The position numbers and the translations under genes are program-made. Positions 1 to 4,141 of a stretch of DNA of 4,141 nucleotides are shown here, piece by piece. The notes under the pieces are model-generated. The model ran no database searches. It saw nothing but the letters and a program-made list of their open reading frames with translations, and was not told the origin of the DNA. Position 1 is the first letter of the stretch. Each line of letters begins with the position of its first letter. The DNA comes from a virus (taxonomy: Duplodnaviria > Heunggongvirae > Uroviricota > Caudoviricetes), in the IMG/VR virus record IMGVR_UViG_2778261231_000011; one strand, written 5' to 3'.

Positions 1-1143
1 CTATGCTGTTTTGATATCTACGATAACCCAGTCTTTACCACGATCATCATTGTATCGGTCGGTCATTTTTCTGGATTTATGGCCTAACAACTTTTGCGTA
101 TCCAGACCCTGTTCCCGATATAACCGTTCTGACAGAGATCGCTGCTCATGAAATGTGGGCGCAGTTCCTTGCTCCCATTTTATGCCACATTTTTCCCTGG
201 CCTTTTTAAAAGCCGTTGTCAGAGTATTTGCAGAAACCTGGTCTCCTCTGTTTGCTTGAGAGGTAGTGTGACGGTAATGGACCAGATATTTACTAACAAC
301 AGCATCCCTGCACTGAGATATAACTTCACGAAGGGTAATATTCAGAGCATCGCATTTCAGGTTAAGCGGAATAGCAAGTTTTGAACCGGTTTTTTCCTGA
401 GTAATGTGCAACATGTCGTCCCATATATCAGAGAATTTCAAATTGCAGATATCGCCTAAACGTTGTCCAGTAACAAGAGCAAGTAGCATGCCGCATTTTA
501 AATAGGGCTGCCGTCTGCTTACGCTTTCAAATATTGCCTGCCATTCGGGCAGTGACAATCTTTGGCGGTTTACTCGATTTCGCGGTTGTTTTGTTGCCTG
601 CGCTGGGTTAAATCCTGGCGGAACATGTCCTGCGTGTTGTGCTTCTTTGAAGACGTCGATCAACACCATTCTCACGACTTGCGCCATCCTGTTATGACCT
701 TCAGCCTTTACAGCATCAATTATTTCGGCAATATCAAGTGCGGTAATATCCTTGAGGTGTTGCATTCCACAATGCTCACGGAAAAGACGAATGGGTTTGC
801 CTTTTTGCCGATAGGAGTTGGGTCTTAGTTCATTATGTTGCAGCCTGTCCTCCTGGATAGAAATATATTTATCAAGCCATTCTGTCACCGTAATGTCTGA
901 GCGCCTGCCTTTCATTCTTTCCAGACGCTCATTGACGCTTAATATTTGTCTGGTACGTTGTTCAGCAATAATGGTATTTGCTTCAGTAGCAACTTGTTTT
1001 GCTTCATTCTCATCAGTTCCTAAGCTATGAAAACGACCGGATAGTGGATGTTTGTATTGCCAATATACCTTTCCGGTTCGCTTATCTAATTTGCAATATA
1101 AATTGGGTATAGAGATTTTGTGAGATCGGGGTCTAGCAGCCAT
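1..1143 (-). CDS. int: Site-specific tyrosine recombinase (lambda Int family integrase), 380 aa, complete with stop at 1-3
   Basis: Full-length minus-strand ORF. The N-terminus (RPRSHKISIPNLY...) resembles the lambda Int arm-binding domain. The C-terminal catalytic region aligns by eye with lambda Int: TGQRLGDICNLKFSDI (Arg), QEKTGSKLAIP (Lys), TFHEQRSLSERLY (His-x-x-Arg), LLGHKSRKMTDRYNDDRG (His and the Tyr nucleophile). Its start overlaps the upstream xis-like ORF as in lambda. Confidence 0.93.
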   Translation of the reverse strand: MAARPRSHKISIPNLYCKLDKRTGKVYWQYKHPLSGRFHSLGTDENEAKQVATEANTIIAEQRTRQILSVNERLERMKGRRSDITVTEWLDKYISIQEDRLQHNELRPNSYRQKGKPIRLFREHCGMQHLKDITALDIAEIIDAVKAEGHNRMAQVVRMVLIDVFKEAQHAGHVPPGFNPAQATKQPRNRVNRQRLSLPEWQAIFESVSRRQPYLKCGMLLALVTGQRLGDICNLKFSDIWDDMLHITQEKTGSKLAIPLNLKCDALNITLREVISQCRDAVVSKYLVHYRHTTSQANRGDQVSANTLTTAFKKAREKCGIKWEQGTAPTFHEQRSLSERLYREQGLDTQKLLGHKSRKMTDRYNDDRGKDWVIVDIKTA

Positions 1144-1369: not shown

Positions 1370-1508
1370 TTGTCCTCCTCTTAGCTGCTGAGGGAGTTTG
1401 TGACCGATATATCTGACATGATATTAAGCTCATGGCAGGTACATCTCTTGACTGGTCATAGAGATAAATTTAATGCTGAGAAATGCAGTATTGAATTTAT
1501 CAATTTTT
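1370..1508 (-). promoter_or_regulatory. AT-rich intergenic region between the small-gene cluster and xis-int; candidate internal promoter or regulatory region
   Basis: This is a 139 bp non-coding gap, AT-rich, containing a short inverted repeat (ATATC-n6-GATAT at 1409-1424). No strong sigma70 consensus could be defined by eye on either strand. Confidence 0.2.
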
Positions 1509-2328: not shown

Positions 2329-2408
2329 TGAACAAGTCCCATGTCGGCAAGCATAAGCACACAGAATATGAAGCCCGCTGCCAGAAAAATGCATTCAGTG
2401 GTTGTCAT
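2325..2408 (-). CDS. Unlisted 27-aa hydrophobic micro-ORF (MTTTECIFLAAGFIFCVLMLADMGLVQ), possible small membrane peptide
   Basis: Found by reading the minus strand between two listed ORFs. Its ATG (2408-2406) overlaps the TGA stop of the 63-aa ORF, and its TGA stop (2327-2325) overlaps the ATG of the 71-aa ORF, both as ATGA. The core is hydrophobic, long enough for one transmembrane helix. It falls below the ORF-track size cutoff. Confidence 0.3.
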   Translation of the reverse strand: MTTTECIFLAAGFIFCVLMLADMGLVQ

Positions 2409-2596
2409 ACCTGGTCTCTCTCATCTGCTTCTGCTTTCGCCACCATCATTTCCAGCTTTTGTGAAAGGGATGCGGCTAACGTATGAAATTCTTCGTCTGT
2501 TTCTACTGGTATTGGCACAAACCTGACTCCAATTTGAGCGAGGCTATGTGCCATCTCGATACTCGTTCTTAACTCAACGGGAGATGCTTTATGCAT
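2405..2596 (-). CDS. Hypothetical small acidic protein, 63 aa
   Basis: Minus-strand ORF MHKASPVELRTSIEMAHSLAQIGVRFVPIPVETDEEFHTLAASLSQKLEMMVAKAEADERDQV. It is net acidic, with a purine-rich stretch (GGGGGG) a few nt upstream of the ATG. It is the first gene of the leftward coupled cassette. The family was not recognised. Confidence 0.5.
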   Translation of the reverse strand: MHKASPVELRTSIEMAHSLAQIGVRFVPIPVETDEEFHTLAASLSQKLEMMVAKAEADERDQV

Positions 2597-3150
2597 ACAG
2601 CCCCCCGTTTATTATTTATCTTCTCAGCCAGCCGCTGTGCTTTCAGTGGATTTCTGATAAACGCCTTTACCCGAATCAGGTAAACACAAAAGACAAACTA
2701 ACAAAAGACAATATAAAACCTTTTTCGTCAGAGAATTCTGGCGAATCCTCTGACCAGCCAGAAAACGATCTTCCTGTGGTGAAACCGGATGCTGCAATTC
2801 AGAGCGGCAGCAAGTGGGGGACAGCAGAAGACCTGACCGCCGCAGAGTGGATGTTTGACATGGTGAAGACCATCGCGCCATCAGCCAGAAAACCGAATTT
2901 TGCAGGGTGGGCTAACGATATCCGCCTGATGCGTGAACGTGACGGACGTAACCACCGCGACATGTGTGTACTGTTCCGCTGGGCATGCCAGGACAACTTC
3001 TGGTCCGGTAACGTGCTGAGTCCGGCCAAACTCCGCGACAAGTGGACCCAGCTCGAAATCAACCGAAACAAGCAACAGGCTGGCGTGACAGCCGGCAAAC
3101 CAAAACTCGACCTGACGAACACTGACTGGATTTACGGGGTGGAGCTATGA
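2548..3150 (+). CDS. O: Replication protein O, C-terminal (P-interacting) domain only; N-terminally truncated with a non-homologous GTG-initiated 5' extension; possibly a pseudogene or remnant
   Basis: From about 2685 onward the translation (TKDKLTKDNIKPFSSENSGESSDQPENDL...WGTAEDLTAAEWMFDMVKTIAPSARKPNFAGWANDIRLMRERDGRNHRDMCVLFRWACQDNFWSGNVLSPAKLRDKWTQLEINRNKQQAGVT...KPKLDLTNTDWIYGVEL) matches, from memory, the linker and C-terminal domain of lambda O. The stop overlaps the P start as ATGA, as in lambda. The first roughly 45 codons show no O similarity. The frame opens at 2527 and the only upstream start is GTG 2548 (GAGG 4 nt upstream); the first in-frame ATG is 2584. Confidence 0.7.
   Translation: MPSRYSFLTQREMLYAYSPPFIIYLLSQPLCFQWISDKRLYPNQVNTKDKLTKDNIKPFSSENSGESSDQPENDLPVVKPDAAIQSGSKWGTAEDLTAAEWMFDMVKTIAPSARKPNFAGWANDIRLMRERDGRNHRDMCVLFRWACQDNFWSGNVLSPAKLRDKWTQLEINRNKQQAGVTAGKPKLDLTNTDWIYGVEL
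2681..2740. other. Remnant of a lambda-type replication origin: AT-rich unwinding segment without the upstream iterons
   Basis: An AT-rich run carries the direct repeat ACAAAAGACAA twice (2686-2696 and 2701-2711), followed by TTTTTCGTCAGAGAATTCTGGCGAATCC with an EcoRI site at 2733-2738. This matches my recollection of the right half of ori-lambda, which lies inside O. No 18-19 bp iteron repeats are visible in the 250 bp upstream. Confidence 0.5.
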
Positions 3151-3848
3151 AAAACATCGCCGCACAGATGGTTAACTTTGACCGTGAGCAGATGCGCCGG
3201 ATCGCCAACAACATGCCGGAACAGTACGACGAAAAGCCGCAGGTACAACAGGTAGCGCAGATCATCAATGGTGTGTTCAGCCAGTTACTGGCAACTTTCC
3301 CGGCGAGCCTGGCTAACCGGGACCAGAACGAACTGAACGAAATCCGCCGCCAGTGGGTGCTGGCTTTCCGGGAAAACGGGATCACCACAATGGAACAGGT
3401 TAACGCAGGAATGCGCGTAGCCCGTCGGCAGAATCGACCATTCCTGCCATCACCCGGGCAGTTTGTTGCCTGGTGCCGGGAAGAAGCATCCGTTAACGCC
3501 GGGCTGCCAAACGTCAGCGAGCTGGTTGATATGGTCTATGAGTATTGTCGGAAGCGTGGCCTGTATCCGGATGCAGAGTCTTATCCGTGGAAATCAAACG
3601 CGCACTACTGGCTGGTTACCAACCTGTACCAGAACATGCGGGCCAATGCGCTTACTGATGCGGAATTACGGCGCAAGGCTGCCGATGAACTGACTTGTAT
3701 GACCGCGCGAATTAACCGTGGTGAGGCGATACCTGAACCAGTAAAACAACTTCCTGTCATGGGCGGTAGACCTCTAAATCGTGCACAGGCTCTGGCGAAG
3801 ATCGCAGAAATCAAAGCGAAGTTCGGACTGAAAGGAGCAACTGTATGA
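3147..3848 (+). CDS. P: Replication protein P (lambda P family; DnaB helicase loader), 233 aa
   Basis: The translation (MKNIAAQMVNFDREQMRRIANNMPEQYDEKPQVQQVAQIINGVFSQLLATFPASL ... AKIAEIKAKFGLKGATV) is recognised as near-identical to bacteriophage lambda P at the same length. ATGA overlaps link it to O' upstream and ren downstream. Confidence 0.93.
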   Translation: MKNIAAQMVNFDREQMRRIANNMPEQYDEKPQVQQVAQIINGVFSQLLATFPASLANRDQNELNEIRRQWVLAFRENGITTMEQVNAGMRVARRQNRPFLPSPGQFVAWCREEASVNAGLPNVSELVDMVYEYCRKRGLYPDAESYPWKSNAHYWLVTNLYQNMRANALTDAELRRKAADELTCMTARINRGEAIPEPVKQLPVMGGRPLNRAQALAKIAEIKAKFGLKGATV

Positions 3849-4141
3849 CGGGCAAAGAGGTAATTATTCATTATCTGGAGACGCACAAGAGCTTCTGTGC
3901 GCAGGACGTTGCTGCGGCAACAGGTGTGACAGTAACCTGCATAAATCAGGCAGCAGCTAAAATGGCGCGGGCAGGAATCCTGGTCATTGATGGTAAGGTC
4001 TGGCGAACGGTGTATTACCGGTTCGCTACCAGAGAAGAACGGGAAGGAAAGGTGAGCACGAACCTGATTTTTAAGGAGTGTCGCCAGAGTGCCGCGATGA
4101 AGCGGGTGTTGGCGGTATATGGGTTATTAGTTATTACTTGA
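3845..4141 (+). CDS. ren: Ren (Rex-exclusion resistance protein) homologue, 98 aa, complete with stop at 4139-4141
   Basis: The translation MTGKEVIIHYLETHKSFCAQDVAAATGVTVTCINQAAAKMARAGILVIDGKVWRTVYYRFATREEREGKVSTNLIFKECRQSAAMKRVL closely matches lambda Ren as I recall it. It sits immediately after P with an ATGA overlap. The last roughly 8 residues may diverge from lambda. Confidence 0.82.
   Translation: MTGKEVIIHYLETHKSFCAQDVAAATGVTVTCINQAAAKMARAGILVIDGKVWRTVYYRFATREEREGKVSTNLIFKECRQSAAMKRVLAVYGLLVIT

Follow-up and report, generated by a model that had tools for sequence, protein, structure and literature searches.

A lambdoid prophage remnant at icd and a recurrent deletion endpoint in the replication origin inside O

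An integration block joined directly to a truncated O-P-ren replication block raises the question of whether such a locus is a small integrative element, a functional replication or interference module, or the scar of a deletion. The stretch of DNA analysed here (4,141 nt in full; hereafter the window) very probably forms the left end of a lambdoid prophage that was inserted at the icd attachment site, has decayed heavily and can no longer excise, and what it contains is an ordinary deletion scar in a dead prophage rather than a working element. Its first 2,596 nt carry, on the minus strand, a phage-21-type int-xis-accessory block; at 2658–2660 this is fused to O, of which the 3′ half remains, and P and ren come next (Table 1). 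The left arm (1–2660) shares 99.5% identity with phage PhiR47_2; the right arm is 99.8–99.97% identical to the O-P-ren allele of the relatives L007 and L008, and 2658–4122 matches O-P-ren of intact phages at 96%. Both sides of the join are collinear with separate but correctly oriented parts of intact lambdoid genomes (96–99.9% identity). As originally predicted, cI/cro/cII, the recombination genes and the N region are all absent between the two blocks, and no cI, cro, cII, N, full-length O, Q, lysis or structural genes were found from icd to the host ycgH region. An Rfam search of the window returned no match.

Table 1. Features of the window, with the basis of each assignment
Feature	Position	Strand	Basis
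Integrase, 380 aa, phage-21 type (icd integration)	1..1143	-	Pfam Arm-DNA-bind_1 and Phage_integrase
Excisionase, 78 aa	1133..1369	-	Pfam Exc; same sequence as PhiR47_2 Xis
Long hairpin of 16 pairs with a T-rich run behind it, between xis and DUF4222 gene	1463..1501	+	Terminator-like scan
DUF4222 gene, 79 aa	1509..1748	-	Pfam PF13973
TraR/DksA-type zinc-finger gene, 72 aa	1796..2014	-	Pfam PF01258; same annotation in related phages
orf61-like gene, 93 aa	2113..2394	-	PhiR47_2 annotation orf61; one substitution
orf63 / DUF1382 gene, 63 aa, last intact left-arm gene	2405..2596	-	Pfam PF07131, full length
Fortuitous upstream extension of the O frame, from GTG 2548 or ATG 2584 (gene finders)	2548..2658	+	Antisense of orf63 5′ end plus spacer
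Remnant of parental orf63-orf60a intergenic spacer	2597..2657		Agrees with PhiR47_2 and L007 at each base as far as the junction
Deletion junction, TAA	2658..2660		Equals last 3 nt of iteron 4, O coordinates 528-530
O′ remnant, ~163 C-terminal codons of the 339-codon O (linker and P-binding half)	2659..3150	+	Sequence comparison
Iteron 5 (TTACCCGAATCAGGTAA), sole surviving copy of five	2667..2683	+	Pattern search
Origin A-rich tract, two 15-nt direct repeats ACAAAAGACAAACTA / ACAAAAGACAATATA	2686..2715	+	Sequence
Replication protein P, 233 aa, intact	3147..3848	+	Pfam PF06992; 98% identical to lambda P
ren, 98 aa	3845..4141	+	87% identical to lambda Ren

The left arm retains an integrase that aligns end to end with lambda Int structures. 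The motifs TGQRxGD, KTGxK, HExRSLS and GHKS and the C-terminal Tyr, which we take to be catalytic, are all conserved, in agreement with the prediction that the catalytic features are kept. The int DNA shares 97–99.5% identity with phage 21 and PhiR47_2; compared with the plaque-forming phage PhiR47_2, Int carries two substitutions and Xis none. The leftward block ends at 2596, as anticipated, with the start codon of the orf63/DUF1382 gene, whose reading frame is identical in PhiR47_2.

Mapping of the 2400–2750 region against lambdoid phages, the check proposed in the original prediction, placed the junction to the base. The TAA at the join is present in both parents (GGATAA/CAG on the left, CAGGTAA/ACGCC on the right). 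One illegitimate recombination event at this microhomology connected the orf63/orf60a spacer, part of the leftward early operon, to the end of iteron 4 inside O. The comparison shows that orf60a, exo-bet-gam-kil, the immunity region, pL, pR, cro, cII, O codons 1–176 and four of the five iterons were deleted. Measured against an intact PhiR47_2-like phage, the loss amounts to 6,268 bp (~6.3 kb); if the ancestor was an L007-like remnant with an earlier deletion of its own, it comes to 1,352 bp. Homology to O had been expected ~90 bp past 2596 and inside the AT-rich half of the origin; it actually starts at 2658–2661, which is 62–65 nt past 2596 and upstream of the last iteron.

Repeats may be joined wrongly in short-read assemblies, and the N-termini of lambdoid O proteins are mosaic, with in-frame allele boundaries at O coordinates 96–99 and 167; the join could in principle be chimeric, made during assembly, or it could mark a genuine alternative N-terminus of O that has its own iterons. 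We consider this extremely improbable. Four independent assemblies, drawn from three sources (two from NCBI, one from ENA, one from Logan), contain all 4,141 bases at 100% identity, so the junction is no assembly artefact, and the two sides of the join overlap by 3 nt, much less than the k-mer length of any assembler. The junction region is also found on three shorter Logan contigs, and 14 contigs in a larger collection carry the junction; GCA_900604275.1 and GCA_002545375.1 are among the carriers. It had no exact match among GTDB species representatives or in closed E. coli genomes (0 of 5,426). As for an alternative N-terminus, which the original prediction had named as the finding that would overturn it, the 2548–2680 stretch proved to be the 5′ end of orf63 and the orf63/orf60a spacer of intact phages; 2548–2657 reads as orf63 antisense plus this spacer, and Pfam Phage_rep_O is absent.

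The translation of the O′ remnant equals the O protein of L007 from KRLYPNQ onward and is ~97% identical to lambda O residues 160–299. The N-terminal DNA-binding domain is missing, as predicted: Pfam Phage_rep_O lies at residues 51–145 of the intact 339-aa O, and a Pfam search of the O′ ORF found no domain. A PDB sequence search with full-length O returned no solved relative. The iterons, said to be missing altogether, are only partly so: four were lost, and the fifth is kept together with the A-rich tract behind it. The intact allele has five copies of TTACCYRAATCAGGTAA, as seen in L007 and L008 (L007 additionally retains cII and the 339-aa O), and the pattern search found one site in the window versus five in intact O, with a chance expectation of 0.01–0.02. 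Homology between this allele and lambda begins directly 3′ of iteron 5. Among the requirements of a replication module, full-length O, the iteron array and pR are absent, and the A-rich tract and intact P are present. A single iteron without the DNA-binding domain of O should permit no origin function.

The surroundings in the source genomes read icd, int through ren, an HD-domain gene, IS1 and then ycgH-ymgD-minE, with int starting 113 nt from icd in L009–L012; icd is the attachment site of phage 21 and e14. The search for att repeats on the right side of the element proved negative: no attR or icdC copy was found within 9 kb downstream, the only copy of the icd 3′ end being attL, and IS1 abuts host DNA. 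The K-12 segment from icdC through ymgF is missing, and K-12 homology picks up again between ymgF and ycgH; IS1 stands in place of the remaining prophage and ~8 kb of host DNA. This shows a separate, IS1-associated deletion that took everything to the right of one HD-domain gene, attR included, and presumably left Int and Xis without a partner att site.

An autonomous integrative or satellite element, excised and mobilised by a helper lambdoid phage that supplies O, would account for the intact Int and Xis, near-identical to those of a plaque-forming phage, and for the presence of one iteron, the A-rich tract and P. However, IS1 and host genes, reached ~2.4 kb past ren, stand where attR/icdC should be, both flanks are merely collinear with ordinary phage genomes, and genes for packaging or helper exploitation are absent. 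Neither an initiator of its own nor a cognate origin is in place, the DNA-binding half of O being missing and one of five iterons remaining; according to PMC6022878, lambda loses function when even one iteron is lost (ori98). We regard such an element as highly improbable. Of the two readings originally offered, the missing attR at icd and the IS1 in place of the remaining prophage argue for the scar in a cryptic prophage over the small integrative element, and the collinear flanks, the 3-nt microhomology join and the icd site agree with this.

K-12 DLP12 (exoD′-′peaD-renD), O157:H7 AC-3, Z1323CEC0014, 19AR1724 and wlxctx60 are built in the same way but break at other points. In DLP12 (intD-xisD-exoD′-′peaD-renD::IS3-emrE), too, an internal deletion has brought an int-xis left arm directly up against a truncated replication module of the lambda type, with ren behind it; DLP12 has likewise lost its immunity region, pL/pR and recombination genes, and was later eroded further by IS elements. 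Unlike the window, DLP12 lies at argU and has a different integrase, and its deletion begins in exo and reaches P (O coordinate 1407), with O wholly gone and P truncated, whereas the window breaks in the orf63/orf60a spacer and at O 528 and keeps P intact. Defective prophages at the icd site of other E. coli, such as AC-3, Z1323CEC0014 and 19AR1724, share the integrase family, attachment site and O-P-ren allele family with the window, and as in the window, independent deletions cross their immunity region. Their breakpoints run from downstream of xis to O 232, from exo to O 783, and from DUF1317 to cII with full O retained. They keep the downstream emrE/ybcK/nin/Q/lysis genes that the window lineage lost to the IS1-associated deletion.

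The position of the break inside O is shared. Five independent deletions and possibly a sixth, the window being one, stop within 13 nt (O 526–538) at the spacer between iterons 4 and 5, with three of these events (L288, L297 and L307) represented by one assembly each. Their left partners are the orf63 spacer, lambda ea22, bet, gam and kil, scattered over several kb. The endpoints fall on both edges of the iteron 4/5 spacer, the last in the array, and involve microhomologies of 3–5 nt; the GGTAA and TTACC motifs at the remaining four iterons were never used. The binomial P for such a recurrence is ~2e-5 to 3e-4. The clustering of five or six endpoints within 13 nt suggests an origin-linked deletion hotspot, and the right-hand break of the window appears to be non-random, located at this recurrent endpoint. 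The junctions of L288, L297, L103 and L307 are absent from closed E. coli genomes, and IMG/VR-wide scans excluding the intact-origin base yielded no hotspot events besides L288, L103 and L307. We found no description of such an endpoint in open-access papers.

Several candidates were set aside during this survey. Breaks at O coordinates 96–99 and 167 were dropped as truncations, being the allele or mosaic boundaries of in-frame alternative N-termini. L246 was rejected because a Tn5/Nextera mosaic end lies next to the lambda ori (artefact or lambda contamination), and contigs of ~48.4–48.5 kb in unrelated genera were likewise treated as artefact or lambda contamination. L218 and L289 proved to be iteron-to-iteron recombinants rather than junctions with foreign DNA.

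How might the origin define one end of a deletion? Most likely, the recurrent endpoint marks a fixed DNA end or a stalled fork at the origin, which would then have been joined through microhomology to a variable site on the left. In a more specific and tentative version, the fixed end or stationary fork would sit where the unwound or primed origin stops on its left side, and the joining would proceed by template switching or by asymmetric resection and microhomology joining; the same event would kill the origin and remove pR. Laboratory precedent exists in the RK- (replicative-killing) survivors of trapped lambda prophages described by the Hayes laboratory, whose lesions end pR-O-P expression or origin function (PMC6022878). 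The same paper reports that P kills even when expressed at trace level, and that cells which outlive in-situ origin firing have either deletions or insertions within O/P or large deletions that remove the immunity region; loss of pR together with O/ori is thus the type of lesion that survives. Unlike the window, these survivors were lab-selected in lambda, and the passages of PMC6022878 consulted here mention no preferred endpoint in the last inter-iteron spacer. We hypothesize that the natural deletions may have arisen under RK-type selection. That the scars are footprints of origin firing in trapped prophages, at a previously undescribed hotspot, is a tentative proposal that we consider less likely than not. 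If it is true, natural genomes would preserve a map of the sites at which DNA is held or broken by the origin complex in vivo.

The right-arm genes were predicted to be intact. For P this is correct, as the gene is full length and its start overlaps the stop of O (ATGA). For ren it is essentially so, with the exception of the stop codon: 4125 is T versus G in the nearest alleles (TGA>TTA), which adds five codons and lengthens the protein from 93 aa to 98 aa. In this lineage the frames of O′, P and ren are all open, as they also would be in a functional module. Against a relative with the full iteron set, the right arm shows one difference in 3,921 bases; the intact P and ren therefore reflect recency and give no sign of selection, and the three genes probably look intact because the deletion is very recent.

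The native cro/pR region is deleted, and a consensus scan found no sigma-70-like promoter on the plus strand past 2069. At the upstream ORF starts, GGGAG directly abuts ATG 2584 with zero spacing, and GAGG lies four nt 5′ of GTG 2548. The 188-aa ORF from ATG 2584 was matched by exact protein look-up; the 200-aa version from GTG 2548 was not on record by the same look-up. Going by these features of the sequence, O′, P and ren would be promoterless passenger DNA. A weak or read-through transcript may nevertheless cross 2400–2700, which we count against this reading.

The original prediction went further and suggested that O′ could act as a decoy and that the module might interfere with the replication of superinfecting lambdoid phages or of the host. 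In a domesticated O′-P-Ren, an expressed P-binding half of O would titrate the element's own P, protecting the host, or that of a superinfecting phage, giving partial exclusion, and the recurrent endpoint would then reflect selection for an exact domain boundary. PMC6022878 presents the C-terminal region of O as the proposed P-binding domain and reports P toxicity 12–15 fold lower when O and P are co-expressed; the open frames, and the retention of the same O′ fragment by several independent deletions, also fit. However, there is no promoter-like site upstream, the ORF starts in fortuitous DNA with a poor Shine-Dalgarno context, and one substitution per 3.9 kb relative to the full-iteron relative means too little time for visible selection. 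Other lineages sharing the endpoint have a broken P (L006, L307), an O′ split by IS3 (L297) or a truncated ren (L103/L212, L288). Searches of O′, P, Ren and the adjacent 515-aa HD-domain protein against PADLOC (PADLOC-DB) returned nothing. Among experimental precedents, the interference idea comes closest to the inhibition phenotype, in which a non-replicating fragment of the lambda replication region on a plasmid can interfere with superinfecting phages of the same replication type (PMC3349717). This requires intact oop with its promoter pO and iterons 3–4, but not the AT-rich part (PMC3349717); in the window, in contrast, the cII/O junction region with oop/pO and iterons 1–4 is deleted, and only the last iteron is left. 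The decoy thus finds no support here, and a domesticated module is very unlikely.

Read as a deletion scar, the locus is one more decaying lambdoid prophage of little consequence, with a DLP12-like layout long known, and is best annotated as pseudogene and remnant DNA and not as a replication or interference module. It does offer a clean, datable case of stepwise prophage erosion, with an internal microhomology deletion, the removal of attR and host genes through IS1, and one point change that came later. The endpoint that recurs in the last inter-iteron spacer suggests that origin activity steers part of prophage decay, and it is relevant to the handling of the leftward side of a lambda-type origin by the O-some. 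A minor observation concerns the other end of a related deletion: in the O157:H7-type event (O coordinate 232), the left end lies directly after the hairpin that separates xis from the DUF4222 gene.

The window falls cleanly into two parts when compared with 50,697 phage records, none of which covers both contiguously. The left part, 1-2660, corresponds to the int side of phage-21-like lambdoid genomes (identity 99.5% with PhiR47_2, 97% with phage 21); its six leftward genes, all within 1-2596, are int (380 aa), xis, a DUF4222 gene, a TraR/DksA zinc-finger gene, an orf61-like gene and orf63/DUF1382. Positions 2658-4122 match O-P-ren of intact phages (~96%); three rightward reading frames occupy 2548-4141, namely a 200-aa ORF ending in 163 codons that make up the C-terminal part of lambda-type O (hereafter O'), P (233 aa) and ren (98 aa). 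GC content rises from ~0.44 to ~0.56 across the junction. Base-by-base comparison with both parents places the crossover in the TAA at 2658-2660 (left parent ..GGATAA/CAGAAAGG.., right parent ..AATCAGGTAA/ACGCCTTTACCC..). With both arms mapping separately to lambdoid phages, the fused int-xis/O'-P-ren layout of the original prediction is real and its reading as a deletion scar in a cryptic prophage is right, with two factual corrections: O homology begins 62 nt, not ~90 bp, after 2596, and not all iterons are lost.

The window's own O-P-ren allele was found on two IMG/VR contigs: L007, 99.8% identical and still possessing 'cro, cII and a 339-aa O, and L008, 99.97% identical over 3,921 bases, which begins within O, leaving the iteron array as the only part visible upstream. 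Compared with L007, 1,352 bp are missing from the window; compared with a PhiR47_2-like intact phage, 6,268 bp are missing, the latter stretch comprising orf60a, exo, bet, gam, kil, a toxin-antitoxin pair, cI, cro, cII and O codons 1-176. L007 has undergone a deletion of its own (orf60a' joined to 'cro), and the window deletion may therefore represent a second step of erosion, but it would have erased the evidence either way. L007 (1123-1125) and strain 19AR1724 (L005 8987-8988) share a left breakpoint with differing right ends, reaching 'cro in the former and the middle of cII in the latter, which suggests successive nibbling deletions within one lineage.

The full window is 100% identical in assemblies GCA_900604275.1 (L009) and GCA_002545375.1 (L010), one ENA contig and one Logan contig; the junction is also present on three shorter Logan contigs, and the 188-aa product from ATG 2584 is recorded on 14 contigs. 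In L009 the prophage is preceded by purB-hflD-mnmA-nudJ-rluE-icd, then int, while ren is followed by a leftward 515-aa HD-domain gene, IS1 and a ycgH-like autotransporter-ymgD-...-minE-minD. Compared with K-12, the sole icd 3' end copy is the attL one; IS1 (L009 ~13,996-14,763) joins the remnant to DNA lying between ymgF and ycgH in K-12, and the rest of the prophage, attR/icdC and ~8 kb of host genes (iraM, ycgX, bluR, bluF, ycgZ-ymgA-ariR, ymgC, pdeG and ymgF) are lost. Because only the attL end is left, the ~6.6 kb remnant is predicted to be unable to excise despite Int and Xis that are essentially wild type. The alternative of a small integrative element is not supported: the comparison with K-12 recovered attL only, and IS1 abuts host DNA.

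The 515-aa gene (L009 11914-13461, minus strand, opposite ren, 356 nt downstream of the window) encodes a protein with a weak HD-domain match and no PADLOC matches. It occupies the position of the defence gene PD-lambda-1 in phage PhiR26_1, with DNA similarity to that region limited to 237 nt.

The window is an ordinary, rare new member of a well-known kind of object; none of 5,426 closed E. coli genomes has its junction. In K-12, DLP12 (intD-xisD-exoD'-'peaD-renD::IS3-emrE) likewise has an integration arm fused to a truncated replication module, although its break lies inside P (O coordinate 1407). Other strains carry independent deletions at the same icd site: O157:H7 AC-3 (hairpin downstream of xis to O 232), Z1323CEC0014 (exo to O 783) and 19AR1724 (DUF1317 to cII, full O kept).

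Intact O of this type contains five copies of the palindromic iteron TTACCYRAATCAGGTAA (O 442, 471, 490, 514 and 537), with an A-rich tract after the last one. Only this tract and the fifth iteron (2667-2683) are left in the window, so the proposed absence of iterons holds for the other four. According to PMC6022878, O comprises an N-terminal DNA-binding domain, a flexible linker and a C-terminal P-binding region; the O' kept here is equivalent to lambda O from ~residue 150 on (~97% identical from residue 160), and the predicted loss of the DNA-binding domain stands. Internal origin deletions between identical iterons also occur: iteron 1 x iteron 5 in L218 (~3113), a contig with this origin type (an out-of-frame loss of 95 bp), and ITN1 x ITN4 in L289, in lambda-type O.

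Truncations of this O type were collected from 211 contigs with the last iteron and A-rich tract, and from 135 hits of an anchor placed within the C-terminal half of O, in which breaks right of the iterons are not censored.

True deletions truncating this O type (L numbers, comparison contigs or genome loci; positions in brackets)
O coordinate	Locus	Left partner	Microhomology
215	L086, L096, L176	just upstream of DUF4222 gene	
232	L001 (O157:H7), L031, L062	hairpin downstream of xis	
526	L103/L212 (L103 ~6427)	gam	GGTAA
526	L307 (~57)	56 nt only	
528	window (2658-2666)	orf63/orf60a spacer	TAA
528	wlxctx60 (L006, ~3007)	lambda ea22	TAA
538	L288 (~5343)	kil	TACC
538	L297 (~3096)	bet	TACC
783	L004	exo	

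The right endpoints of five, possibly six, independent deletions fall in the same 13 nt (O 526-538, the iteron 4/5 spacer), with differing left partners and 3-5 nt microhomologies. In wlxctx60, a lambda-int prophage remnant at ybhC, lambda sequence up to 29984 precedes O'; the kil, bet and gam flanks were confirmed by annotation in closed genomes. L288, L297 and L307 are represented by one assembly each, the overlaps being far too short for assembler joins. No deletion ends were found at the other eight iteron edges (442-513) or in O 539-693 among the sampled truncations. With the window as seed and wlxctx60 left out, having been found by junction search, three of seven other events lie within 10 nt of the window endpoint (binomial P 1.6e-5 to 3e-4, by span assumed). 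Genes right of the endpoint decay independently: P is broken in wlxctx60 and L307, L297 has IS3 within O', and ren is truncated in L103/L212 and L288. Since these parts are separately broken across lineages, selection for a working O'-P-ren unit does not explain the clustering. The last inter-iteron spacer is an apparent deletion hotspot, for which the searchable literature yielded no prior description, and it is the single item worth following up.

The fixed right end, variable left ends and short microhomologies are compatible with a DNA end or a stalled fork being retained at one specific origin position. We speculate that this position could be where the opened or primed region stops on its left when the origin fires, or the right-hand side of the O complex bound to iterons 1-4, and that deletion would be completed by template switching or by asymmetric resection and microhomology joining; PMC3985674 gives background on the O-some and on the directionality of replication. 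One step would remove pR and inactivate the origin; lesions of this kind survive loss of repression in prophages unable to excise (PMC6022878). The main alternative to such an end or fork is that DNA structure alone, for instance palindromes or bent DNA, is responsible.

Whether O'-P-ren does anything was also considered. pR and cro are deleted, and a consensus scan found no promoter-like sites on the plus strand downstream of 2069. Upstream of 2659 the frame runs through spacer DNA and the opposite strand of the orf63 start, not an alternative O N-terminus, and hence the ORF start codon is accidental; GGGAG directly abuts ATG 2584 with zero spacing, and GAGG lies 4 nt upstream of GTG 2548. 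The right arm differs from L008 only at 4125 (G>T), which converts the ren stop TGA to TTA (Leu) and extends Ren from 93 to 98 residues; P is intact as predicted, and ren is open but has lost its stop codon. With one difference in 3,921 bases, intact P and ren point to a recent deletion, not to selection. As P is lethal even at trace expression (PMC6022878), a viable chromosome with an intact P gene is best explained if that gene is silent. Where lambda replication fragments have been shown experimentally to interfere, oop/pO and iterons 3-4 are required (PMC3349717), whereas the window has neither, and O', P and Ren gave no PADLOC model matches; the suggestion that O' acts as a decoy appears unsupported.

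GTDB assemblies from unrelated genera (Shewanella, Pseudomonas, Neobacillus, Oceanobacillus and others; L293, L299, L305 and further loci) also contain exact lambda-type O, in three cases on ~48.4-48.5 kb contigs and frequently with low coverage, most likely reflecting lambda DNA contamination. L297, a piece of E. coli prophage, has been placed in the bin of a 'Candidatus Nanosynbacter' MAG. In the IMG/VR contig L246 (~241), a Tn5/Nextera mosaic end (..GTGTATAAGAGACAG) abuts lambda ITN4, and this candidate was rejected as an artefact of the library or construct. Between xis and the DUF4222 gene, the window carries a 16-pair hairpin with a T-rich tail (1463-1501), directly abutted by the left end of the widespread O157:H7-type deletion (O 232); it may be another structure-associated deletion endpoint.
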